Part shown: one piece after another, positions 11,534 to 23,171 of the stretch
Position numbering within the stretch: the first letter of the stretch is position 1
How the letters are laid out: the number at the start of each line of letters is the position of its first letter
Sequence record: OR880646.1
Origin: Escherichia phage ECP2301
DNA: 64,000 nt
Direction: 5' to 3' (one strand)
Position numbers and translations under genes: made by a program
Notes under the pieces: model-generated
Told to the model about the DNA's origin: nothing
The model's input: only the letters and a program-made list of their open reading frames with translations
Databases searched by the model: none

Positions 11534-13302
11534 AAAAGCCACAAGAAATGCAAACGATGCGTAGAAAAGTTATTTCAGATAATAAACCAACACAGGAAGC
11601 GGCTAAATCCGCTTCCAACACTTTATCTGGGCTTAACGATATATCTACGAAATTGGATGATGCTCAAGCTGCTTCTGAATTAATTGCTCAAACTGTCGAA
11701 GAAAAATCGAATGAAATAATTGGAGCAATTGACAATGTAGAAAGCGCAGTGAGTGATACTACTGCTGGTTCTGAGTTAATTGCTGAAACTGTCGAAATTG
11801 GCAACAATATTAATAAAGAAATCGGTGAATCACTCGGAAGTAAATTAGATAAATTAACGAGTTTACTAGAGCAAAAAATCCAGACATCCGGAATTCAACA
11901 AACAGGAACTAGTTTAGCTACGGTTGAAAGCGCTATTCCTGTTAAAGTCGTTGAGGATGATACAGCTGAATCTGTTGGTCCTTTATTACCAGCTCCTGAA
12001 GCAGTTAATAATGATCCTGATGCTGATTTTTTCCCTACCCCTCAGCCAGTTGAACCCAAACAAGAATCGCCAGAAGAAAAACAGAAAAAAGACGCATTTA
12101 ACTTAAAATTATCTCAAGCTTTAGATAAATTAACAAAGACTGTTGATTTCGGATTTAAGAAATCTATTTCAATTACTGATAAAATATCAAGCATGCTATT
12201 TAAGTATACTGTCAGTGCTGCTATTGAAGCTGCTAAAATGACTGCAATGATATTGGCTGTTGTTGTTGGAATAGATCTGCTGATGGTTCACTTTAAATAT
12301 TGGTCAGATAAATTTTCGCAGGTTTGGGATTTGTTTAGTTCAAACTTTACTAAATTCTCTAGCGAAACCGGAACATGGGGTCCTTTATTACAGAGCATCT
12401 TTAGTTCTATTGATGAAATTAAAAAATTCTGGGAAGAGGGAGATTGGGGCGGTTTGACAGTAGCTATTGTAGAAGGGCTTGGAAAGGTTCTTTATAATTT
12501 AGGAGAACTTATTCAGCTTGGAATGGCTAAATTATCAGCAGCAATTCTTCGAGTCATTCCTGGCATGAAGGATACTGCTGATGAAGTAGAAGGAAGAGCA
12601 CTAGAAAATTTCCAAAATTCTACTGGAGCATCTCTCAATAAAGAAGACCAGGAAAAAGTAGCAAATTATCAAGATAAACGAATGAACGGAGACCTTGGTC
12701 CGATAGCAAAAGGATTAGATAAAATTGCTAATTGGAAAACTCGTGCATCTAACTGGATTCGTGGCGTTGATAATAAAGAAGCACTAACTACCGACGAAGA
12801 ACGTGCAGCAGAAGAAGAAAAATTAAAGCAACTTTCACCAGAAGAAAGAAAAAATGCTTTAATGAAGGCTAATGAAGCTCGGGCCGCGATGATTCGTTTT
12901 GAAAAATACGCTGATTCGGCTGATATGAGTAAAGACTCAACGGTTAAATCAGTTGAAGCTGCCTATGAAGACCTTAAAAAACGAATGGATGACCCGGATT
13001 TAAATAATTCACCGGCAGTTAAAAAAGAACTTGCTGCTAGATTTTCTAAAATTGATGCTACTTATCAAGAGCTCAAGAAAAATCAGCCTAATGCCAAACC
13101 TGAAACTTCTGCTAAATCGCCAGAAGCAAAACAAGTCCAGGTAATAGAAAAGAACAAAGCACAGCAAGCTCCTGTTCAACAAGCATCTCCTTCGATCAAT
13201 AATACTAATAATGTTGTTAAGAAAAATACTGTCGTTCATAATATGACACCCGTAACGAGCACGACTGCTCCTGGTGTATTTGATGCGACTGGAGTTAATT
13301 AA
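11530..13302 (+). CDS. 29: Baseplate hub / tail-length determinator gp29
   Basis: 590 aa; T4 length; coiled-coil rich. Confidence 0.88.
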   Translation: MKKPQEMQTMRRKVISDNKPTQEAAKSASNTLSGLNDISTKLDDAQAASELIAQTVEEKSNEIIGAIDNVESAVSDTTAGSELIAETVEIGNNINKEIGESLGSKLDKLTSLLEQKIQTSGIQQTGTSLATVESAIPVKVVEDDTAESVGPLLPAPEAVNNDPDADFFPTPQPVEPKQESPEEKQKKDAFNLKLSQALDKLTKTVDFGFKKSISITDKISSMLFKYTVSAAIEAAKMTAMILAVVVGIDLLMVHFKYWSDKFSQVWDLFSSNFTKFSSETGTWGPLLQSIFSSIDEIKKFWEEGDWGGLTVAIVEGLGKVLYNLGELIQLGMAKLSAAILRVIPGMKDTADEVEGRALENFQNSTGASLNKEDQEKVANYQDKRMNGDLGPIAKGLDKIANWKTRASNWIRGVDNKEALTTDEERAAEEEKLKQLSPEERKNALMKANEARAAMIRFEKYADSADMSKDSTVKSVEAAYEDLKKRMDDPDLNNSPAVKKELAARFSKIDATYQELKKNQPNAKPETSAKSPEAKQVQVIEKNKAQQAPVQQASPSINNTNNVVKKNTVVHNMTPVTSTTAPGVFDATGVN

Positions 13303-13310
13303 GGAATAAT

Positions 13311-14405
13311 ATGGCAATTGTTAAAGAAATAACTGCTGATTTAATTAAAAAGTCCGGTGAGAAAATTTCAGCCGGACAGAGTACTAAATCAGAAGTAGCA
13401 ACTAAAACATACACTGCCCAGTTTCCAACTGGGCGTGCTAGTGGTAATGACACTACAGGGGACTTCCAGGTAACAGATCTATATAAGAATGGATTATTAT
13501 TTACTGCATACAATATGTCATCTAGGGATTCTGGAAGTCTTAGATCGATGAGATCTAACTACTCTTCTTCATCTTCGAGTATTTTAAGTACAGCTAGAAA
13601 CACTATTAGTAGTACAGTATCAAAACTATCAAATGGATTAATATCAAACAATAATTCAGGAACAATAAGTAAAGCTCCTGTTGCAAACATTCTTTTACCG
13701 AGATCTAAATCTGATGTTGATACGTCATCACATAGATTTAACGATGTTCAAGAAAGTCTTATCAGCAGAGGCGGAGGTACTGCTACTGGTGTGTTAAGTA
13801 ATATTGCTTCAACTGCAGTATTTGGGGCACTGGAAAGTATAACACAAGGCATAATGGCTGATAATAATGAACAGATTTATACTACAGCCAGAAGTATGTA
13901 TGGTGGTGCTGAGAATAGAACTAAAGTGTTTACATGGGATTTGACTCCACGTTCAACAGAAGATTTGATGGCTATTATTAATATCTATCAATATTTTAAC
14001 TATTTTTCTTATGGTGAAACGGGCAAATCTCAATATGCTGCTGAAATAAAGGGGTATTTAGATGATTGGTATCGTTCTACATTAATTGAACCTTTATCTC
14101 CGGAAGACGCAGCTAAAAATAAAACACTATTTGAGAAAATGACATCGAGTTTAACTAACGTTCTAGTAGTTTCAAACCCGACAATTTGGATGGTGAAAAA
14201 CTTTGGTGCAACGTCTAAGTTTGATGGAAAAACGGAAATATTTGGCCCATGCCAAATACAGAGCATCAGATTTGATAAAACGCCTAATGGTAACTTTAAC
14301 GGATTAGCTATTGCTCCAAACCTCCCTAGTACATTTACTCTTGAGATTACTATGAGAGAAATTATCACGTTAAACCGTGCTTCTTTATATGCGGGGACTT
14401 TTTAA
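13311..14405 (+). CDS. 48: Baseplate tail-tube cap gp48
   Basis: 364 aa; T4 length and position. Confidence 0.88.
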   Translation: MAIVKEITADLIKKSGEKISAGQSTKSEVATKTYTAQFPTGRASGNDTTGDFQVTDLYKNGLLFTAYNMSSRDSGSLRSMRSNYSSSSSSILSTARNTISSTVSKLSNGLISNNNSGTISKAPVANILLPRSKSDVDTSSHRFNDVQESLISRGGGTATGVLSNIASTAVFGALESITQGIMADNNEQIYTTARSMYGGAENRTKVFTWDLTPRSTEDLMAIINIYQYFNYFSYGETGKSQYAAEIKGYLDDWYRSTLIEPLSPEDAAKNKTLFEKMTSSLTNVLVVSNPTIWMVKNFGATSKFDGKTEIFGPCQIQSIRFDKTPNGNFNGLAIAPNLPSTFTLEITMREIITLNRASLYAGTF

Positions 14406-15370
14406 TGTATTCTTTAGAGGAATTTAATAATCAAGCAATAAACGCAGATTTCCAGCGTAATAATATGTTTAGCTGCGTTTTTGCGACAACTCCATCAACT
14501 AAAAGCTCTTCGTTGATAAGTTCAATTAGCAACTTTTCTTATAATAACTTGGGTCTAAATTCAGACTGGTTAGGATTGACTCAAGGTGATATTAATCAGG
14601 GAATTACCACGCTAATTACTGCTGGCACACAAAAACTGATAAGAAAATCAGGGGTTAGTAAATATCTTATTGGTGCCATGAGTCAACGTACAGTTCAAAG
14701 TTTATTGGGCTCATTTACAGTTGGTACATATTTAATTGACTTCTTTAATATGGCATATAACTCATCTGGGTTGATGATATACTCTGTAAAAATGCCAGAG
14801 AATAGATTATCCTATGAAACTGACTGGAACTATAACTCTCCTAATATTCGTATAACTGGGAGAGAATTAGACCCTTTGGTTATTTCATTTAGAATGGATT
14901 CAGAAGCTTGTAACTATCGTGCAATGCAAGACTGGGTTAACGCTGTTCAAGACCCAGTAACTGGATTGCGTGCTTTGCCACAAGATGTCGAGGCAGATAT
15001 TCAGGTTAATCTTCATGCTCGTAATGGATTACCTCATACTGCAGTGATGTTCACCGGATGCATTCCAGTGTCAGTGAGCGCTCCTGAGTTATCATATGAT
15101 GGAGATAACCAAATAACTACATTTGATGTTACTTTTGCGTATAGAGTCATGCAGGCTGGGTCTGTTGATAGACAAGCTGCGCTTGAGTGGCTTGAATCTG
15201 CTGCTATAAATGGCATTCAAAGCGTTCTCGGAAATAGTGGAGGTGTTACTGGATTATCTAATTCGCTTTCACGACTTAGTAGATTAGGGGGAACTGCTGG
15301 AAGCATTTCAAACATTAATACTATGACAGGAATTGTCAATTCGCAAAGTAAAATATTAGGAGCAATATAA
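14405..15370 (+). CDS. 54: Baseplate tail-tube initiator gp54
   Basis: 321 aa; overlapping start with gp48 stop. Confidence 0.88.
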   Translation: MYSLEEFNNQAINADFQRNNMFSCVFATTPSTKSSSLISSISNFSYNNLGLNSDWLGLTQGDINQGITTLITAGTQKLIRKSGVSKYLIGAMSQRTVQSLLGSFTVGTYLIDFFNMAYNSSGLMIYSVKMPENRLSYETDWNYNSPNIRITGRELDPLVISFRMDSEACNYRAMQDWVNAVQDPVTGLRALPQDVEADIQVNLHARNGLPHTAVMFTGCIPVSVSAPELSYDGDNQITTFDVTFAYRVMQAGSVDRQAALEWLESAAINGIQSVLGNSGGVTGLSNSLSRLSRLGGTAGSISNINTMTGIVNSQSKILGAI

Positions 15371-15372
15371 CA

Positions 15373-15400
15373 ATGGGGACCGAAAGGTCCCCATATTTTT
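15373..15400 (+). terminator. Intrinsic terminator after gene 54
   Basis: ggggacc-GAAA-ggtcccc hairpin followed by T-rich tract. Confidence 0.7.
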
Positions 15401-15689
15401 ATTTACGGAATGAAATGAAAGCAGCAACTGAAGCAACTAAACTGTCTTCAATATAAACTTCAATTTTTACCGGAGCTTCTGACTCAAATTTGCCTGTTAC
15501 TACACCTTGGAAAATGCTTTCAGTCTGTTCTGGCTTTGAAAAATTTTCAGAAGGAAAAATTCCGAACTTTTTATCTGTTCCAAAAATTTTGATAAATTCA
15601 TCATAAACTGCTTCATTAAAAGCGTTATCAGCAGGAATAACGCCTTCAACTACAAGTTCTTGACCTAAAAAGCGTAAAGAAGATTTCAT
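15399..15689 (-). CDS. Hypothetical protein (alt-upstream-region ORF)
   Basis: 96 aa ORF with GAGGA RBS; preceded by repeated promoter/leader cassette. Confidence 0.55.
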   Translation of the reverse strand: MKSSLRFLGQELVVEGVIPADNAFNEAVYDEFIKIFGTDKKFGIFPSENFSKPEQTESIFQGVVTGKFESEAPVKIEVYIEDSLVASVAAFISFRK

Positions 15690-15697
15690 TTTGTGTT

Positions 15698-15750
15698 CCT
15701 CATGTTATGTCAGTAAGATTACTATAACACAACACGAGGGACTTGTAAAC
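15698..15750 (-). promoter_or_regulatory. Promoter plus leader cassette, copy 1 of a 53-bp exact repeat
   Basis: Minus strand GTTTACAAGTCCCTCGTGTTGTGTTATAGTAATCTTACTGACATAACATGAGG; identical to 31676-31728. Confidence 0.6.
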
Positions 15751-17807
15751 TACATCTTGAACTTTTTAGACATTCCGTTGATGTTAACCAAAGAAGCCAA
15801 GATTTGAGAAACTTCGTTTTCCTCTTCTTTTGATTCTTCTACAAGGAATTGATTAAACCCAGCCATTGGACGAACTTCGCCAGTTTCCATTAGATGATCG
15901 CCATCATATACCGATTCTTCTAATTGTTCAGAAGGAGGAACGATTGTGCCTTCGATTAGATACTTGTTATAAGCAGTTTCTTTCATCATGTACGTGCTCA
16001 CTTTATTAATCTTCAGCAAAATTCCACGCGGTAGAATAACTTCAGCTTCTGATGGAAATCCCGATAAATGACCTGGAACGATAACTTTGATTCGCTCAGC
16101 CCCTTTAATTACCATACCTACGCTAGTTTCAGCATCTTCATTCGCATAAGCAGAATGACTGCCCATATGCATTAAATCTTCAGCATCAACAGAACCTTCT
16201 CCTTCACCAGAAAATACTGCGCCGGAATCATCTAGAGCCATATAGTTTTTACCATGCTCACCGAAGATATTTGGTTTAAGCGATGTTGATACGAAGTTCT
16301 TGAAATAGAACATTTTATTTTCAATATTATGGCGTAAAGTTTTAAAAGTAACTTCTTGTCCACGATAAAGCGTAGTTCCTGGAGGAAGAACTGAACCTTT
16401 GGCAAAGGCAGAATCCAGCGTCTCGATGTGTTTAATAGCTCGTTCCATATATTCTTCACGGGTAGAATCTGGTTTACCCAAGAGGAACGAGTTCATTTCA
16501 ACATATGAATCTGCACAATAATCTTCAATTACATCAGACTCAGCCTGAGTCAGTCCTTTTGGAGTTACTTCGGTGCTTGAGTATTCATATGCCTGAGCAG
16601 CAGATTCATTAATCAATTTATAAATGCCATTCATGACAAATTGAATAATAGCTACCTTTTCGTCTGGCGTAGCTTTAGAACCTTTAACTAAATCATTGAT
16701 AATTTTCTTAATAACATCAAAGCTATTAGAAATATTAATGTCAGCGAGATCGCTCAAAATTTTATCGGTTTTATAATCAAAAAATTCTTTATTCTTTAAA
16801 TATTCTTGAGAACCTTGATGTGTTATATCGCTCTGCAGTCTGATAGACGGATCACGTAAACGCGCATGGGCCAATGCAATATGATTTCGGAAGCTTTCTA
16901 GTTCATAATCGTTAGATTTAAAACGAGAAGCACTTCTCATACCACCGATAGCTCCTTTGCCGAAGTTTGAACCAATCTGAATAACACCAGAGTTCATTGG
17001 TCCTTCTGCTTTATATACCGGAACTTTAGATTCAAACTCTTGATATTTCTTGGCAGCGAAGCTATCACCCTGTAGCGAAGCATCGACAGTAGAATATTGA
17101 GCTTGTGCTGCTAATCGACGACTAATTTTAGTTTTCTGAATAACAGCTTGATCCGTGCGCTTATCATTTTCTAAAGCAATAGAAGCAGCAACAGCAACAG
17201 CTTTAGGAACAGCATTACCTGTTTTAACATCTACATAAACATCACCAACCTTTGATTCAACTTTTGTGAATAACTCAGTTGAAATAGGAGGTACACCTGG
17301 AATGTCTTCTAAATTGGCATTTTTACGGTAAACCATAATATATGCATACTTTTTATCATAATCCCAGATTTCCTTTAAAAGAACATATCGACCTGCTCCT
17401 TTAGTACGTACTAAACGGTCAGCAATAACTTGCATTTGACGAGCTGCGCCATTTGTTTTACTTTTTAGTACGCGGAATAAGCATGCATCAATTTTATACT
17501 GTTTCATTGTTTGAAGAGCAGTATCAAAAACGGCATTAATGACACCAATTGGATTTCCACCCAAGTTTTTAAGTTTAACTAATGATAGTTTCTCATTAAC
17601 ACCTATCATTACGATATGCATCATTTTATCGCCTGGCTTAACGTTTTTATTTGTATCACCGCCAGAGGTGTATGTACAAAATCTAAATCCAGGAAGCACG
17701 CTTTCTTCACCGGCTTGAATAGCAAAAATTTGAGGTATTTTATGCTTAGGATTTAAGTTAACAACCGGCGCCGAAGCGCCGTCAAATAATTCTGTAATAA
17801 GTTCCAT
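15750..17807 (-). CDS. Alt-like mono-ADP-ribosyltransferase, second paralogue
   Basis: 685 aa; N-terminal ~170 aa alignable by eye with Alt; R-S-ExE ART motifs (YRGQ, FVSTSL, SEAEVILPRG). Confidence 0.85.
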   Translation of the reverse strand: MELITELFDGASAPVVNLNPKHKIPQIFAIQAGEESVLPGFRFCTYTSGGDTNKNVKPGDKMMHIVMIGVNEKLSLVKLKNLGGNPIGVINAVFDTALQTMKQYKIDACLFRVLKSKTNGAARQMQVIADRLVRTKGAGRYVLLKEIWDYDKKYAYIMVYRKNANLEDIPGVPPISTELFTKVESKVGDVYVDVKTGNAVPKAVAVAASIALENDKRTDQAVIQKTKISRRLAAQAQYSTVDASLQGDSFAAKKYQEFESKVPVYKAEGPMNSGVIQIGSNFGKGAIGGMRSASRFKSNDYELESFRNHIALAHARLRDPSIRLQSDITHQGSQEYLKNKEFFDYKTDKILSDLADINISNSFDVIKKIINDLVKGSKATPDEKVAIIQFVMNGIYKLINESAAQAYEYSSTEVTPKGLTQAESDVIEDYCADSYVEMNSFLLGKPDSTREEYMERAIKHIETLDSAFAKGSVLPPGTTLYRGQEVTFKTLRHNIENKMFYFKNFVSTSLKPNIFGEHGKNYMALDDSGAVFSGEGEGSVDAEDLMHMGSHSAYANEDAETSVGMVIKGAERIKVIVPGHLSGFPSEAEVILPRGILLKINKVSTYMMKETAYNKYLIEGTIVPPSEQLEESVYDGDHLMETGEVRPMAGFNQFLVEESKEEENEVSQILASLVNINGMSKKFKM

Positions 17808-17810
17808 GAT

Positions 17811-19907
17811 TTATCCTTGAACGAACTTGTAAGGCATGTTTGTAATATCTATGCAAGACGCAATAATTCTAAGAGATGATTCTACTTTTTGTTTAACATT
17901 TGATGAAACAAATGATGCAAAATCAACTCTGTCTTCTATTTCAATATCACCTGTCATTGCAACTACTTCACCAGTTTCCATTAGACGGTCACCGTCATAA
18001 ATTACTGATTCGGTGAGTTCTTCCGTAGTCATAACTTCAGCTTGAATGAGTTTTGTATTATTAGATGTTGTTCCATCATTATTAGAAGCATCAGTTATTT
18101 TATTAACTTTGACCATCAATCCGCGTGGTAGAATAACTTCAGCTTCTGTTGCTATTCCGAGACTTCCTGGATATACAACATTAACTTTATGAGCTCCATC
18201 AATTGCCCATCCTATTTGAACTTTAACGTATTCAGGATTTTCTTTATACGCTCTTATTTCGTTTGGATTAATAGTTATTCCTTCTTCATTTTTATCAACT
18301 GTCAATTCATTACGAGCTTCTGGTTCTAAAAGACCAATACCAGCATGTGTAATTCCAAAACGTCCAAAAATGATAGGAGTTAAAGAAGTAGATACAAAAT
18401 TTCTGAAATAGAACACTTTATTTTTAACTAGTGCTTCGTATATAGGAGCAGTCATACTTTGAGCACGATAAACTGTAATGCCTTCTGGTATACGGTCACC
18501 ATTTTCAAAAGCTGAATCTAAGTTATTTATAGCAGATTCAATTTCTTTTTCACTCATTACATCATATCGTTCTGGATTGTAGCGTCCTAAAAGAAGATTA
18601 TTGATGTCAGTATATCCTGAACCACAATACTCTCTAATGCCGCGCTTTTGTGATGGAGTATATTTAGAACCATCGCGAGCAATAGTAATATCAATCATTG
18701 GACCTGCACCAATTCCAGAAAAACTATAAATCATTCGTTTGAGGAATTTAGTTTTTGCTGCGTTCCAGGAATTTTTAGTTATTTCTTCCCAGACTTCATC
18801 TGGCTGTCCTTTACGTGTTTTATTATGTTTATCAAGCCAATTATCTTTATATTCTTCAAAGAGTTGATTAACGGCTGCTGCGTATTTCTCTAAACATTTT
18901 ATTGAAGTAGTTGGTTCATTTTTAATCGCATTAAGAATTACATCTTTTATCTTTTCAGAAACTTCATTAACCTCACTTTTTGAAAAGAATTTATAATCAT
19001 AGTGAAGTTCATCTGCAGTTCCTTCGGCAATGATTTTTGCTGCCTTAGTTTTAGAAGCTATTGAATTAATTCCAAGTTTCATTTCTTCTGCTTCGGGAAT
19101 TAAAGGAGCGGTAGCAGGTTTATTGAAATTAGCTGCGGTAGATTCATACTTCTGGAATAATTCACTTTCAAATCTAGAAGATTCTAATGATTGACTTTGT
19201 GCAATTGCTCTACGGGAAATTTTAACTTTAACGATTACAGCTTGATCAGAACGTTTATCGTTTTCTTGCGCAATAGATGCAGCAATTGCCTCATTTTTAG
19301 TTACTTGAGCTCCGGTATCTTTATTGATATAAACATCACCGACCTTCGATTCAACTTTAGTAAAGAGCTCGGTACTAATTTCAGGAACTCCTGGAATGTC
19401 TTCTAATGATACATTTTTGCGATGTATAAGAATATATGCGTACTTTTTATCGTAATCCCAGAGTTCCTTAAGAAGGACGTATCTGCCACCTGAACGACTA
19501 CGGATAAGTCTATCAGCAATAAGTTGAATTTGTCGAGCTTGACCAGCAGTTTTAGACTTAAGAATACGGAGCATACAGGCATCAATTTTATACTGACGCA
19601 TTGTTTGCATCGCAACAGTAAAAACTGAATTGATGTAATTAATTGGGCTTGGACCGAGACCTTTTAATTTAGCGATTGAACCTTTAGCAGTTAATGTAAA
19701 AGGAACAATATGCATCATTTTATCGCCCATCTTTAAATCGCGATTAGTATCACCTCCAGATGTATAGGTACATAAACGAAAGCCTGGTTGTTCAATTGCG
19801 TCATCAACATGAACTGAAAAAATTTGCGGTATTTTCTTCTTTGGATTTAAGTTTGTAATCGGAAGAGTAGTATCTTCGTCAAATAATTCTGTAATGAGTT
19901 CCATCAT
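17811..19907 (-). CDS. alt: Alt ADP-ribosyltransferase (virion-packaged, modifies host RNA polymerase)
   Basis: 698 aa; N-terminus MMELITELFDEDTTLPITNLNPKKKIPQIF matches my recollection of T4 Alt; R-S-ExE motifs (YRAQ, FVSTSL, TEAEVILPRG). Confidence 0.9.
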   Translation of the reverse strand: MMELITELFDEDTTLPITNLNPKKKIPQIFSVHVDDAIEQPGFRLCTYTSGGDTNRDLKMGDKMMHIVPFTLTAKGSIAKLKGLGPSPINYINSVFTVAMQTMRQYKIDACMLRILKSKTAGQARQIQLIADRLIRSRSGGRYVLLKELWDYDKKYAYILIHRKNVSLEDIPGVPEISTELFTKVESKVGDVYINKDTGAQVTKNEAIAASIAQENDKRSDQAVIVKVKISRRAIAQSQSLESSRFESELFQKYESTAANFNKPATAPLIPEAEEMKLGINSIASKTKAAKIIAEGTADELHYDYKFFSKSEVNEVSEKIKDVILNAIKNEPTTSIKCLEKYAAAVNQLFEEYKDNWLDKHNKTRKGQPDEVWEEITKNSWNAAKTKFLKRMIYSFSGIGAGPMIDITIARDGSKYTPSQKRGIREYCGSGYTDINNLLLGRYNPERYDVMSEKEIESAINNLDSAFENGDRIPEGITVYRAQSMTAPIYEALVKNKVFYFRNFVSTSLTPIIFGRFGITHAGIGLLEPEARNELTVDKNEEGITINPNEIRAYKENPEYVKVQIGWAIDGAHKVNVVYPGSLGIATEAEVILPRGLMVKVNKITDASNNDGTTSNNTKLIQAEVMTTEELTESVIYDGDRLMETGEVVAMTGDIEIEDRVDFASFVSSNVKQKVESSLRIIASCIDITNMPYKFVQG

Positions 19908-19927
19908 ATCCTCTCTAGTGTTTATTC

Positions 19928-19935
19928 TATTTATA
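19928..19935 (-). promoter_or_regulatory. Late promoter upstream of alt
   Basis: Minus strand TATAAATA about 20 nt upstream of alt start; consistent with late expression of a packaged protein. Confidence 0.6.
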
Positions 19936-19956
19936 AAATTAAAGGCCCGAAGGCCT

Positions 19957-20145
19957 TTAATAATCTATTGGTAAGAGAGTACGGTATATTTCAAACTTTG
20001 GACCTTTTTCATAGGCATCAAATGTTTCTGTGAATTTATTATAAGCATATGCATCTATAAATTCAATCATAATTTGTGATACAGAAGTAGAAACATCTCC
20101 ACCTTCTTTTTGAGCCACGACAATTGTTTCTAAGTAAGCTTTCAT
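19957..20145 (-). CDS. Hypothetical protein
   Basis: 62 aa ORF between ligase and alt. Confidence 0.5.
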   Translation of the reverse strand: MKAYLETIVVAQKEGGDVSTSVSQIMIEFIDAYAYNKFTETFDAYEKGPKFEIYRTLLPIDY

Positions 20146-21605
20146 AGACCAGTTACCTCATGAAAATCACCAAATACATCCTCGAATGTATTAGCTTTAG
20201 TTTTATCTTCACGTAAACGAATCGCAATCGGAAGAAATAATTTAACGTAATCAGTGCGGCCATCAGATTTTAACCAACCATTGCATTCACATTCTAGAAT
20301 TTTTCCAATATAATAATTTTGGTTTTCCATAATGCGAGTACGGTCAAGTTCATGCGATTTTACACCGGCTTTATCTTTTAAGCCTGAACCAGCATTTACT
20401 TTAATTTTTCCACACTCTGATTCAAGAATAAATCCACCTGCTTTAGTAGGGTCTTTACGGTGAGGATAAATTCCTACAATTTTTAAATCAACATCAATTA
20501 CTTCTTTAAATTTATAAAGATTTTTTGAACGAGCATTTTCCCACAATCCATCGGTATTTTTGAGAATAATACCTTCAAGACCTTGGTCAATATATTTTTT
20601 ATAAATTACCTTAGCTTCATCTAGGTTATTTACTACCTGGTTTTCAATTAAAATTACTTTATCATATCCTGATGTCATTTGTTCTAGTTTAGAAAAACGT
20701 ACATCATACTTCAAACGAAACGCCGGAAGACCGTATATTTCTACCAACGGGACATAATCCCAGACCTGAAACTTCATGCATTGAGCTTCTTTTTCAGAAA
20801 TGGTTCCTTTTAAGGATTTATTGGCGATTCCATTAGAAGTAGTACGAGATTCCGCTACTTCGGCGAATTCTTTAGCTTTACTAATTTCAGGATAAGCATC
20901 AAAAAGAAAATCTAGGCCTTCTGGTTCCTTTTTAACTTGCTCATGGTATACCAATTCGCCATCGATTAACACACCTTCTGGATGAATCTGGCGGGCTTCA
21001 GCAGTCATTTTGATTAACTCTTCCTTAAGAAGATCTAATCCTAGATATTCATTACCAGCTCGTGATAAAAGACGAACATCATCTAATTCATCACCTCGGA
21101 CTTCAGCAAAACACCGAGCTCCATCTGCTTTTAACTGTGCAAAGGCTGGAAACTTGATATTCTTATTAATGCCCTTTTCATCATAAGAACTTGCCAGCAT
21201 TTGAGGTTGTTCAGGAATTAAACCTGGCCAAACTTTATTTGCAATAGATACTGAAGCACCGCATTCAAGATCTCGCATCATAACTCGACGCAAAACTTCA
21301 ACATCATCCTTTTTACCATCGGTGATATATCCAGTTAATTCCTCAATTGCCGCATTTCCAGTCAATTTCCGAGTAGCTAACGTGAATTCAATGAAGTCAA
21401 GCATATCAGTAATGGTCAGCATTCCAAAACTCTGGGTAGCAATACCAGGCTTAGGCCATTTCTTGATATAATACTGTAACCCACGAGAATAAGTCAGACG
21501 ATATACTCGTTTAAGCAATTCATTATCTTTATTCTTTTCAAGAATTGCTTGCTTCTGCTTAGTTGATCCAATAGATGCTATTTCATTCAGAATTTTAAGA
21601 ATCAT
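20142..21605 (-). CDS. 30: ATP-dependent DNA ligase
   Basis: 487 aa, T4 DNA ligase length; adenylation motif KADG (AQLKADGARC). Confidence 0.93.
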   Translation of the reverse strand: MILKILNEIASIGSTKQKQAILEKNKDNELLKRVYRLTYSRGLQYYIKKWPKPGIATQSFGMLTITDMLDFIEFTLATRKLTGNAAIEELTGYITDGKKDDVEVLRRVMMRDLECGASVSIANKVWPGLIPEQPQMLASSYDEKGINKNIKFPAFAQLKADGARCFAEVRGDELDDVRLLSRAGNEYLGLDLLKEELIKMTAEARQIHPEGVLIDGELVYHEQVKKEPEGLDFLFDAYPEISKAKEFAEVAESRTTSNGIANKSLKGTISEKEAQCMKFQVWDYVPLVEIYGLPAFRLKYDVRFSKLEQMTSGYDKVILIENQVVNNLDEAKVIYKKYIDQGLEGIILKNTDGLWENARSKNLYKFKEVIDVDLKIVGIYPHRKDPTKAGGFILESECGKIKVNAGSGLKDKAGVKSHELDRTRIMENQNYYIGKILECECNGWLKSDGRTDYVKLFLPIAIRLREDKTKANTFEDVFGDFHEVTGL

Positions 21606-21871
21606 TGTTCATCCTTCAGAGTTTGATTTACAGCTCTATTATAAATCAATTCATCATTAAGCTCAGTTAAAGACCTATGATATGTAGTTCTAACTTTATT
21701 TCCTTGCATCCAGTGCTTGATATAAATGAAACCTTGCTCTACACATTTTTTAAAAATTCGTTCGTCTTTTTGAGCTCGGAATTCTGGATTGCATCTAAAG
21801 AATTGATTTACGTGACCGTAATCACGTGTAGTATTACCTTCATTTTCATAAATAGTGTGAACGACAAACAT
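21602..21871 (-). CDS. Hypothetical protein (30.1-region)
   Basis: 89 aa ORF overlapping ligase start. Confidence 0.55.
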   Translation of the reverse strand: MFVVHTIYENEGNTTRDYGHVNQFFRCNPEFRAQKDERIFKKCVEQGFIYIKHWMQGNKVRTTYHRSLTELNDELIYNRAVNQTLKDEQ

Positions 21872-22710
21872 TAGAATGCTCCTTGGAAAATATTATCACC
21901 ACAAGTAGGTCTATTATACAAATACTCTATGCCACCAGGTTTAATATAGTTCCATGTCTGAAACGGATGTGTCTGATATGGATGATATAGATGATTATAA
22001 GGATTAAATCCAGGCGTTCTCCAGGTAGTGTTCCAACGAAAAGAATCATTTTTAATCATCTTTTCAATTATATCTTTTATAGCTTTTTCACTATCAAAAC
22101 TTTCTTTATTTTCCTTTGGTGAAAAAAGCTTATTTTCTACATCATTCCATGTATAAACTCGCTGCGCAGTTTTTGGAATATTGTCACGCTCTCCTCGAGC
22201 CATCCAATAAACAGGAACATTTAATATTTCACTCGCATGATCGCAATGGTGCGCTAGATCGTCAATATAACAAATCACGTTATATTTCTCTTTTGCCTTT
22301 TTGAATAACTCTTCTTTTGAAGAATCATGACCACACATCATTACTTCTGAGAAGGCACCAGGAAAAAGAGCATTCAAATTAAATTGACGATTCAACAGAG
22401 CGTCAATAGAATCACCCAATGCTGTAACAGCTACAAAATTATAATCTTCTTTTAGTTTGTTAATTACGCACAGGGCATCTTTATATGGAGACAGGTAACG
22501 AATAAAATCTGATCGATTGTATTTTTCAATTAGCTTGACACCAAGTTCTTCATCACAATTAAAGAGTTTACCTGGAGAAATAAATTTCTCATCTTGGATC
22601 ATTTTTAAAATATGTTCTAACGGAAGATTATATTTCTGAGCAAAATAAGGAAGACCTGATTGCCAGCTTAAACATACTCCATCAATATCAGTCAAAATAG
22701 TAGGCTTCAT
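21871..22710 (-). CDS. HAD-superfamily hydrolase-like protein (30.2-region)
   Basis: 279 aa; N-terminal DxDG motif (ILTDIDGVCL) typical of HAD phosphatases/nucleotidases. Confidence 0.6.
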   Translation of the reverse strand: MKPTILTDIDGVCLSWQSGLPYFAQKYNLPLEHILKMIQDEKFISPGKLFNCDEELGVKLIEKYNRSDFIRYLSPYKDALCVINKLKEDYNFVAVTALGDSIDALLNRQFNLNALFPGAFSEVMMCGHDSSKEELFKKAKEKYNVICYIDDLAHHCDHASEILNVPVYWMARGERDNIPKTAQRVYTWNDVENKLFSPKENKESFDSEKAIKDIIEKMIKNDSFRWNTTWRTPGFNPYNHLYHPYQTHPFQTWNYIKPGGIEYLYNRPTCGDNIFQGAF

Positions 22711-23171
22711 AGAGAGTCTCTTAGTAGGTTTAACACATCAATAAATTCAGCTTCGGTTAGTATTGTATCATCTTTTGTTAGACCACTAGCCATGCTGTGC
22801 TTCAAAACTTTTCCTTTCGAGGCTTGTAATGCATCACGAAAGCCCCTGTTTTGGATCGCTGCTTCAAAATATGCATTTGTGTATAATTCTTTCCACGCCG
22901 GGGAGTATCTTGAAAACGGAACTCCAAGCCAGAAGAGGGTCCCACGGTCCTGAGCTCTAGCATAAGCTCGTCCAGCTTGTTGGGCGGCAAGCCCGGATAA
23001 CCCAAATATACGACGTTGCTGTTCAATATTTTTCACCTTACACCCTTGGAGGAATCCTTCGAGACCTCCAAATTGGATACCATCCATAACAAAAGGCCAT
23101 TGGGCGAAATTACTTAATGCGCATGATGGCCATTTAAAATTGCTTCTTATCTCTAGCTCAGACATTTTCAA
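22707..23171 (-). CDS. NADAR / YbiA-like (DUF1768) protein
   Basis: 154 aa; LSNFAQWPFVMDGIQFGGLEGFLQGCK closely parallels E. coli YbiA FSNFAAWPIKVDGKTWPTSEHYFQAQK (from memory). Confidence 0.75.
   Translation of the reverse strand: MKMSELEIRSNFKWPSCALSNFAQWPFVMDGIQFGGLEGFLQGCKVKNIEQQRRIFGLSGLAAQQAGRAYARAQDRGTLFWLGVPFSRYSPAWKELYTNAYFEAAIQNRGFRDALQASKGKVLKHSMASGLTKDDTILTEAEFIDVLNLLRDSL

Follow-up and report, generated by a model that had tools for sequence, protein, structure and literature searches.

We analysed a stretch of 64,000 nucleotides (nt) from Escherichia phage ECP2301 (OR880646.1), hereafter the window, which carries two adjacent genes encoding ADP-ribosyltransferases (ARTs) related to Alt of phage T4. 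We show that such a pair is the norm of Tequatrovirus, that the state of T4 is a natural minority polymorphism, and that the small T4 genes alt.-1 and alt.-2 are the deleted, frameshifted remnant of a full-length second gene, Alt2. The likely interpretation of the window is that it holds a standard Tequatrovirus alt locus, expressed late, whose two probably coupled genes encode arginine-specific mono-ARTs, a T2-type Alt (copy 1) and its paralogue Alt2 (copy 2), probably with different targets. The program-made list of open reading frames (ORFs) places the tandem pair on the minus strand at 17811..19907 (698 amino acids, aa) and 15750..17807 (685 aa). The first-pass annotation had described two adjacent, co-oriented genes 3 nt apart, and so they are: copy 1 stops with TAA (17813-17811), followed by 'atc' (17810-17808) and the ATG of copy 2 at 17807, although the start of copy 1 is probably at 19904, which shortens it to 697 aa. 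The pair is not unusual: it is the normal state of the genus, and the second gene is annotated, in hundreds of genomes, as alt.-2, alt_2 or 'Alt2'.

Both proteins belong to the same family of enzymes. The profile PF03496 (ADPrib_exo_Tox), for which the curated gathering score is 23.4 bits, matches copy 1 with 129.4 bits (1.4e-37) and copy 2 with 72.6 bits (3.5e-20); both are so far above the cut-off that chance can be dismissed. The profile phrog_802, 'Alt-like RNA polymerase ADP-ribosyltransferase', covers residues 1-697 of copy 1 (1.6e-272) and 1-685 of copy 2 (8.3e-256), and PF26846 'Tevenvirinae_ADPRT' is precomputed on the cluster representatives P0001 (99% match) and P0091 (T2-type match). 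The R-S-ExE signature, noted at first in both copies, is complete: Y479-R480-A-Q, FVSTSL (S505-T-S507) and TEAEVILPRG (E587-A-E589) in copy 1, and Y481-R482-G-Q, FVSTSL (S507-T-S509) and SEAEVILPRG (E587-A-E589) in copy 2. Careful alignment leaves all catalytic elements of copy 2 in place (R, STS and ExE), and its residues R482, S507, S509, E587 and E589 are invariant in 20 homologues aligned down to 42% identity. In the ART superfamily, arginine specificity goes with E-x-E, which predicts arginine-specific mono-ADP-ribosylation by both proteins. The structure model of copy 2 has a C3/VIP2/Vis-like ART fold. Searches with copy 2 among PDB sequences gave no match at E <= 0.01, and the NCBIfam search gave no match. 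The R-S-E toxins of the C3-like, VIP2-like and Vis types (PF03496) are only 17-24% identical to the window proteins; they depend on secretion or on a binary-toxin pore, whereas the window proteins would be packaged in the capsid and ejected, and have in addition an N-terminal domain (N-domain), a helical region and propeptides at both ends.

The two proteins share one architecture: a six-residue ITE propeptide, the N-domain (~230 aa), a helical region (~170 aa), the ART domain and a tail (~55-65 aa) that in both begins directly after an (L/I)-x-E motif. Among 1.84 billion representatives, only 69 clusters contain the N-domain, and all have it at the N-terminus. Conservation between the copies is very uneven along this architecture, as a three-way alignment with T4 Alt shows. 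The N-terminal ~170 residues, noted at first as alignable, are part of a longer well-conserved block of ~240 residues with 67-68% identity. The divergence claimed for the rest is extreme in the central ~170 residues (about 241-410), which are essentially unalignable (12-19%), but was overstated for the C-terminal part: BLASTP aligns the copies end to end (41% identity, E 2e-158), with 33-35% identity in the ART domain and 42% in the tail. Within the ART domain divergence peaks between STS and ExE, where identity is 7-23%. We considered recent gene conversion between the copies and rejected it: nucleotide identity in the N-domain is 62-80% without a long identical tract, and the longest exact run shared by the copies, at the EAEVILP codons, is 22 nt.

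In related toxins (C3-, iota-like) it is the helical region and the STS-ExE loops that face the substrate. Different targets are the most economical explanation of the pair, because these regions differ almost completely while the residues of the NAD site are invariant. From these alignments, Alt and Alt2 most likely modify different sets of host proteins.

The distribution of copy 2 shows that the pair is not a peculiarity of ECP2301. A search with the ligase gene gave ~498 closely related records, and 401 of these contain the portion of copy 2 missing from T4 (at least 80% coverage, matches at 94-99% identity), including T2, T6, RB14 and RB51. A probe for the deletion junction of T4 is contiguous in 91 records, many of them independent wild isolates, and the two sets together cover essentially all ~498. 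Copy 2 is the orthologue of 'alt.-2' or 'Alt2' in T2, T6, RB14, RB51, Bas35, Bas37 and Bas39, with the same position and 94-99% nucleotide identity to these intact genes. Public labels include alt.-2 (RB14, RB51, ime09), alt_2, 'ADP ribosyltransferase distinct from T4 Alt' (Sf23) and 'ADP-ribosyltransferase Alt2' (the BASEL phages Bas35 and Bas39), and the alt paralogues of T4-like phages were described by Nolan et al. 2006 (PMC1524935). Given these labels and that description, the pair is already known and annotated. The concern that copy 2 might turn out to be a common, characterised paralogue with the same target as Alt is thus justified for its first half only: copy 2 is common and already named.

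How T4 came to differ can be read directly from its genome (NC_000866), where alt is followed by two tiny ORFs, alt.-1 (NP_049810) and alt.-2 (NP_049809), and then by alt.-3. This T4 stretch (L001 5066-5451) follows copy 2 base for base through nt 345 of the gene and resumes with its last ~20 nt. Deleted in T4 are 1699 nt of copy 2, whose edges in the window are two copies of the 9-nt repeat CTAAAAAGT. A run of five A in copy 2 has four in T4, and this frameshift separates alt.-1 from alt.-2. The GenBank note of T4 describes alt.-1/alt.-2 as a 'duplication of the first part of alt', and the notes of T6 and Kha5h mention an 'apparent insertion in alt.-2'. All three have the direction reversed: the T4 form is a deletion and the intact gene is the majority form.

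The annotation of T4 would imply that copy 2 is a decaying, pseudogene-like duplicate, and some records fit with this. The deleted and frameshifted version occurs in T4 and 90 other records. In UTI-E4 (L012 2854-4912) a frameshift splits copy 2 into two ORFs, which may be an independent inactivation or a sequencing error. KAW1E185 (L011 3136-5193) has a fusion of both genes, a single chimeric 685-aa gene at the locus: copy 1 (T2-type) contributes everything from the N-domain through the centre into most of the ART domain, and copy 2 the end of that domain plus the tail. The change from one to the other lies at gene nt ~1714-1771, on the 22-nt identical EAEVILP stretch. Yet, the ORF is intact in the window and in ~400 records, the catalytic residues are invariant, and the ratio of non-synonymous to synonymous substitution rates (dN/dS) over nine genomes is 0.039 (dS reaches 0.26). 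In these genomes the length of copy 2 never departs from 685 aa, and its N-domain is the most constrained part (dN/dS 0.015). Purifying selection acts strongly on Alt2. This result and the intact ORF rule out decay for this window, and we give it practically no credence.

A duplicate might also be kept as a redundant back-up of Alt, packaged, active and directed at the same targets (RNA polymerase alpha and other Alt substrates), thereby adding dose. The two proteins do have family, catalytic residues and processing motifs in common, the T4 lineage thrives despite the loss of Alt2, and in the three HIDEN-SEQ comparisons considered below Alt2 has no condition-specific phenotype. But a duplicate kept for dose is not expected to maintain a dN/dS of 0.04 and an invariant length across nine genomes, nor does redundancy fit with 170 unalignable central residues and STS-ExE loops that are 7-23% identical. 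Besides, the ART type of Alt2 persists as a distinct clade with ORF199 of Dhakavirus (100% bootstrap), and the Alt variants of T4 and Bas37, which are much closer to each other, are already not interchangeable. Redundancy is in our view unlikely.

T4 Alt is a protein of the prohead core, with ~40 copies per head (PMC9026906, PMC5694885), and the gp21 protease cleaves it after ITE-6 and LTE-619 (PMC5694885). Our analysis lends more weight to the suggestion of a second, packaged ART, because both copies keep the two gp21 motifs at homologous positions. Alt2 is probably packaged, trimmed and injected like Alt, with residues 7-631 as the putative mature form. Its P1 glutamates, E6 and E631, do not vary among the 20 aligned homologues, and in all 15 family members compared (eight genera) a conserved x-V-Y-D-G-D block is directly preceded by an (L/I)-x-E motif. 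The structure model shows a disordered linker at 629-652, where the predicted local distance difference test score (pLDDT) is below 50, and residue 631 is at its beginning. By analogy with T4 Alt, both Alt and Alt2 would become part of the prohead core, and gp21 would trim each of them at its two ends. The trimmed proteins would remain in the filled head and leave with the DNA at ejection. They would then use host NAD+ to ADP-ribosylate arginines of host proteins within the first seconds of infection, each on its own, possibly overlapping, set of targets.

Alternatively, Alt2 might not be injected at all, and act late in the producing cell on phage or host proteins, or be only a component of the head core or scaffold. 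Alt2 has no promoter of its own and lies in a putative late operon, and transposon data from phage Bas37 could be taken to mean a role in assembly. HIDEN-SEQ (10.1101/2025.11.20.689424) classes the orthologue of Alt2 there, bas37_0032, as 'Intermediate': insertions hit 116 of its 164 TA sites, at a mean count of 44.5, whereas Alt, classed as 'Non-essential', has a mean count of 203.6. The lower tolerance of Alt2 to insertions is not a polar effect on an essential gene, since the downstream alt.-3 orthologue is non-essential in Bas37; for this orthologue (bas37_0031) the portion of the HIDEN-SEQ tables considered here gives a log2 fold change (log2FC) of -2.70 (q = 0.02) in one comparison (10.1101/2025.11.20.689424). 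The lower tolerance of Alt2 could reflect a real contribution to fitness or the poisoning of head assembly by a truncated protein. Nevertheless, the MELITE propeptide, both (L/I)-x-E motifs and the whole N-domain are conserved with Alt, and the invariant catalytic residues speak against a purely structural role. Moreover, a single-copy member of the family was detected at 189-191 spectra in virions of Klebsiella T4-like phages (PMC13119998). We hence regard a non-injected Alt2 as quite improbable, more so than a redundant one.

Several observations weigh against the interpretation that we favour, i.e. two injected ARTs with different targets. In the literature searched we found no direct evidence for the presence of Alt2 in virions, its cleavage, its activity or a target set different from that of Alt, and no functional study, virion proteomics or proteomic detection of the second copy, just the labels, Nolan et al. 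2006 and the HIDEN-SEQ tables. Insertions in Alt2 are without condition-specific effect (log2FC 0.00 to 0.19) in the three of six HIDEN-SEQ comparisons that were considered (10.1101/2025.11.20.689424). About 18% of the related phages, wild isolates included, are without Alt2, so that the gene must be dispensable on some hosts. The promoter and the co-transcription of the pair are known only from motif matches, and the AF2 model was built on a shallow alignment of 20 sequences. Our analysis shows the structure, family and fold of the genes and their products, the completeness of their catalytic and cleavage motifs, the purifying selection and the distribution; packaging, enzymatic activity and distinct targets of Alt2 are what we infer.

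Copy 1 also departs from T4. The upstream copy had been said to match T4 Alt (NP_049811; 682 aa), and this is correct for its ends, with 99% identity in the N-domain and 92% in the tail, but not for what lies between, with 34% in the centre and 63% in the ART domain. Since dS between copy 1 and T4 Alt is 1.39 in the centre and 1.04 in the ART domain (1.0-1.4) versus 0.15 in the N-domain and 0.22 in the tail (0.15-0.22), alt contains an ancient cassette inside recent flanks. The effector part of copy 1 (centre and ART) has no collinear high identity to T4 Alt, and the two are not the same allele. The T2-type central region is present in 318 phage records, including T2, RB6 and RB14, and the T4-type in 175. 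All four combinations of allele and Alt2 exist: T2-type with Alt2 in this window, T4-type with Alt2 in HP3, PYps55T and Bas35, T2-type without Alt2 in SG1, JEP6 and F25, and T4-type without Alt2 in T4. T4 Alt shares with both window copies the R/STS/ExE site and both gp21 cleavage motifs, as well as the locus (from alt.1/gene 30 to alt.-3/gene 54), the late promoter motif and the order of domains. Its identity to copy 2 is 42% overall (N-domain 68%, centre 15%, ART 36%).

The known targets of T4 Alt are RNA polymerase alpha (Arg265), MazF and others. Phages facing the Mokosh type I defence are rescued by T4 Alt, whereas Bas37 Alt (bas37_0033) does not rescue them (10.1101/2025.11.20.689424). 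The latter is inferred to be a T2-type Alt because its 2097 nt are exactly the length of the copy 1 ORF in the window. Functional non-equivalence of Alt variants has a precedent in this difference between T4 and Bas37 Alt against Mokosh type I, and neither the targets of T4 Alt nor its anti-Mokosh activity can be assumed for either window copy. Outside T4, the label 'Alt' covers two non-equivalent alleles.

Tandem Alt genes are found at the same locus beyond Tequatrovirus: three in Dhakavirus WG01 (ORF199-201) and two in Aeromonas phage B614. In Mosigvirus, Jiaodavirus, Gaprivervirus and Krischvirus there is a single gene. The pair is also present in a metagenomic relative that is more remote. 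The arrays of other Straboviridae (WG01 ORF199-201, Aeromonas 44RR/B614, RB49) have the locus and architecture of the window pair, with one to three copies (Nolan et al. 2006, PMC1524935). We built neighbour-joining trees for each domain with 15 sequences and computed distances by the Nei-Gojobori method. The N-domain groups by phage lineage: both Tequatrovirus copies cluster together (100% bootstrap) and the three WG01 copies join Mosigvirus (96%). The ART domain groups by type across genera, copy 2 with WG01 ORF199 (100%) and copy 1 with WG01 ORF200 (100%). Between copy 1 and ORF200, identity rises from 47% in the N-domain to 94% in the ART domain. Such identity might have resulted from pure protein constraint, which we rejected because synonymous divergence is low too: the proportion of synonymous differences (pS) between copy 1 and WG01 is 0.31 in the ART domain and 0.57-0.85 in the N-domain, centre, tail, gp48, gp54 and alt.-3. 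In terms of dS, the copy 1/ORF200 ART module (window 18009-18680; L014 2916-4997) is at 0.41 and all flanking sequence is saturated. Low synonymous differences in the module amid high ones around it indicate that the copy 1-type ART module was transferred between genera after their separation.

These trees provide a lead towards a modular organisation, in which a lineage-specific N-domain would serve as the delivery part of exchangeable cassettes made of the ART domain, or of the centre and the ART domain. One may go further and propose that Alt2 is a second capsid-delivered ART with its own host targets and that the alt locus is an effector-cassette site where warheads are swapped. We hold this more tentatively than the interpretation given at the outset, and its chances are somewhat less than even. 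Own targets of Alt2 might be, for instance, a component of a defence system, translation or RNA metabolism. As to the cassettes, the lead is that the N-domain and the propeptides would serve in packaging and delivery, and that the centre and ART would be swapped across lineages and genera as in polymorphic toxins. The idea that the N-domain is a general carrier of cargo other than ARTs was tried and is unsupported beyond one weak case. Among 10 members of odd length with the N-domain, eight have PF03496. Of two distant relatives, P0183 (485 aa) has a degenerate ART domain, with Lys for the catalytic Arg and N-S-E for E-x-E, and P0184 (541 aa), the weak case, has the N-domain and a C-terminal half without recognisable ART motif.

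The locus itself has the conserved order gene 30 - alt.1 - alt(s) - alt.-3 - genes 54/48. Upstream of the pair on the same strand are alt.1 (19957-20145) and the DNA ligase gene gp30 (20142-21605), and downstream is alt.-3 (15399-15689); the baseplate genes 54 and 48 are on the opposite strand. These neighbours identify a T4-like phage, and the 4.9-kb alt stretch is 98-99% identical to many Tequatrovirus genomes. The ORF of copy 1 opens with a double ATGATG (19902-19907, minus strand), where the distance to GAGG is 2 nt for the first ATG and 5 nt for the second. The spacing of this Shine-Dalgarno sequence and the MELITE start of T4 Alt make 19904 the probable true start; annotated lengths differ (697 or 698 aa), and that in phage Ge15 is 697 aa. 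The T4 late -10 consensus is TATAAATA (see also PMC1524935). The late promoter announced before copy 1 is there as a motif match (19935-19928, minus strand). The consensus scan found no promoter-like motif in the junction between the copies, and there is no terminator between the alt-alt2 unit and the promoter region of alt.-3. The expected co-transcription is consistent with this layout, and alt and alt2 are probably transcribed as one late unit. The Shine-Dalgarno sequence of copy 2 sits inside the end of copy 1, which suggests translational coupling of the two genes (Table 1).

Table 1. Features of the alt-alt2 locus in the window, in descending coordinates.
Feature	Position	Strand	Basis
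Terminator hairpin AAAGGCC-TTCG-GGCCTTT with T-run, 3' of alt.1 and just before the alt late promoter	19941..19958	-	sequence; Ge15 terminator annotation at the same place
T4-type late promoter motif TATAAATA, 24 nt upstream of ATG 19904	19928..19935	-	motif match
Copy 1, alt, T2-type allele, 697 aa (698 aa for the ORF to 19907)	17811..19904	-	
gp21 motifs of copy 1	ITE-6 (E6 19889-19887); LTE-632 (E632 18011-18009)	-	homologous columns
Catalytic codons of copy 1	R480 18467-18465; S505-T-S507 18392-18384; E587-A-E589 18146-18138	-	
Shine-Dalgarno AAGGA of copy 2, within the last codons of copy 1, 6 nt from ATG 17807	17814..17818	-	sequence; Ge15 ribosome binding site annotation
Copy 2, Alt2, intact form of T4 alt.-1/alt.-2, 685 aa	15750..17807	-	
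N-domain of copy 2 (aa 1-240), PF26846; 6-aa propeptide and alpha/beta domain	17088..17807	-	
gp21 motifs of copy 2	ITE-6 (E6 17792-17790); LEE-631 (E631 15917-15915)	-	homologous columns
A5 run in copy 2; A4 in T4, the frameshift separating alt.-1 from alt.-2	17644..17648	-	
Upstream 9-nt direct repeat CTAAAAAGT, gene nt 340-348, left edge of the T4 deletion	17460..17468	-	
Central helical region of copy 2 (aa 241-410)	16578..17087	-	
ART domain of copy 2 (aa 411-631), C3/VIP2/Vis-like fold	15915..16577	-	
Catalytic codons of copy 2	R482 16364-16362; S507-T-S509 16289-16281; E587-A-E589 16049-16041	-	
C-terminal tail of copy 2 (aa 632-685), predicted gp21-removed propeptide	15753..15914	-	
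Downstream 9-nt direct repeat CTAAAAAGT, gene nt 2039-2047, right edge of the T4 deletion	15761..15769	-	
Sigma-70-like promoter TTTACA-17-TATAGT with TG, before alt.-3, marking the 3' end of the alt-alt2 unit	15721..15749	-	consensus match

Further downstream, a bidirectional hairpin terminator (15373-15394) is common to alt.-3 and gene 54. In T4, mutants with a C-terminal extension of alt.-3 evade the CmdTAC defence (PMC11618068). No Rfam match was found in 13000-23000.

T4 is the reference for the take-over of the host by phages, and its ARTs Alt, ModA and ModB are textbook cases. Our analysis adds a fourth, Alt2, which T4 has deleted but which most natural coliphages of the T4 type possess, T2 and T6 among them. 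Alt2 has apparently remained unstudied because T4 carries just a remnant of it. The notes of T4, T6 and Kha5h are corrected accordingly, and for Alt2 we predict a mature form of residues 7-631 with E587/E589 as the catalytic pair. If Alt2 is indeed a second injected enzyme, it would act before any phage gene is expressed, which would make it a good candidate for a first-strike factor of anti-defence or host reprogramming. If in addition it has its own targets, the loss of Alt2 in the T4 lineage would explain part of the differences among T-even phages in host range and sensitivity to defence systems.

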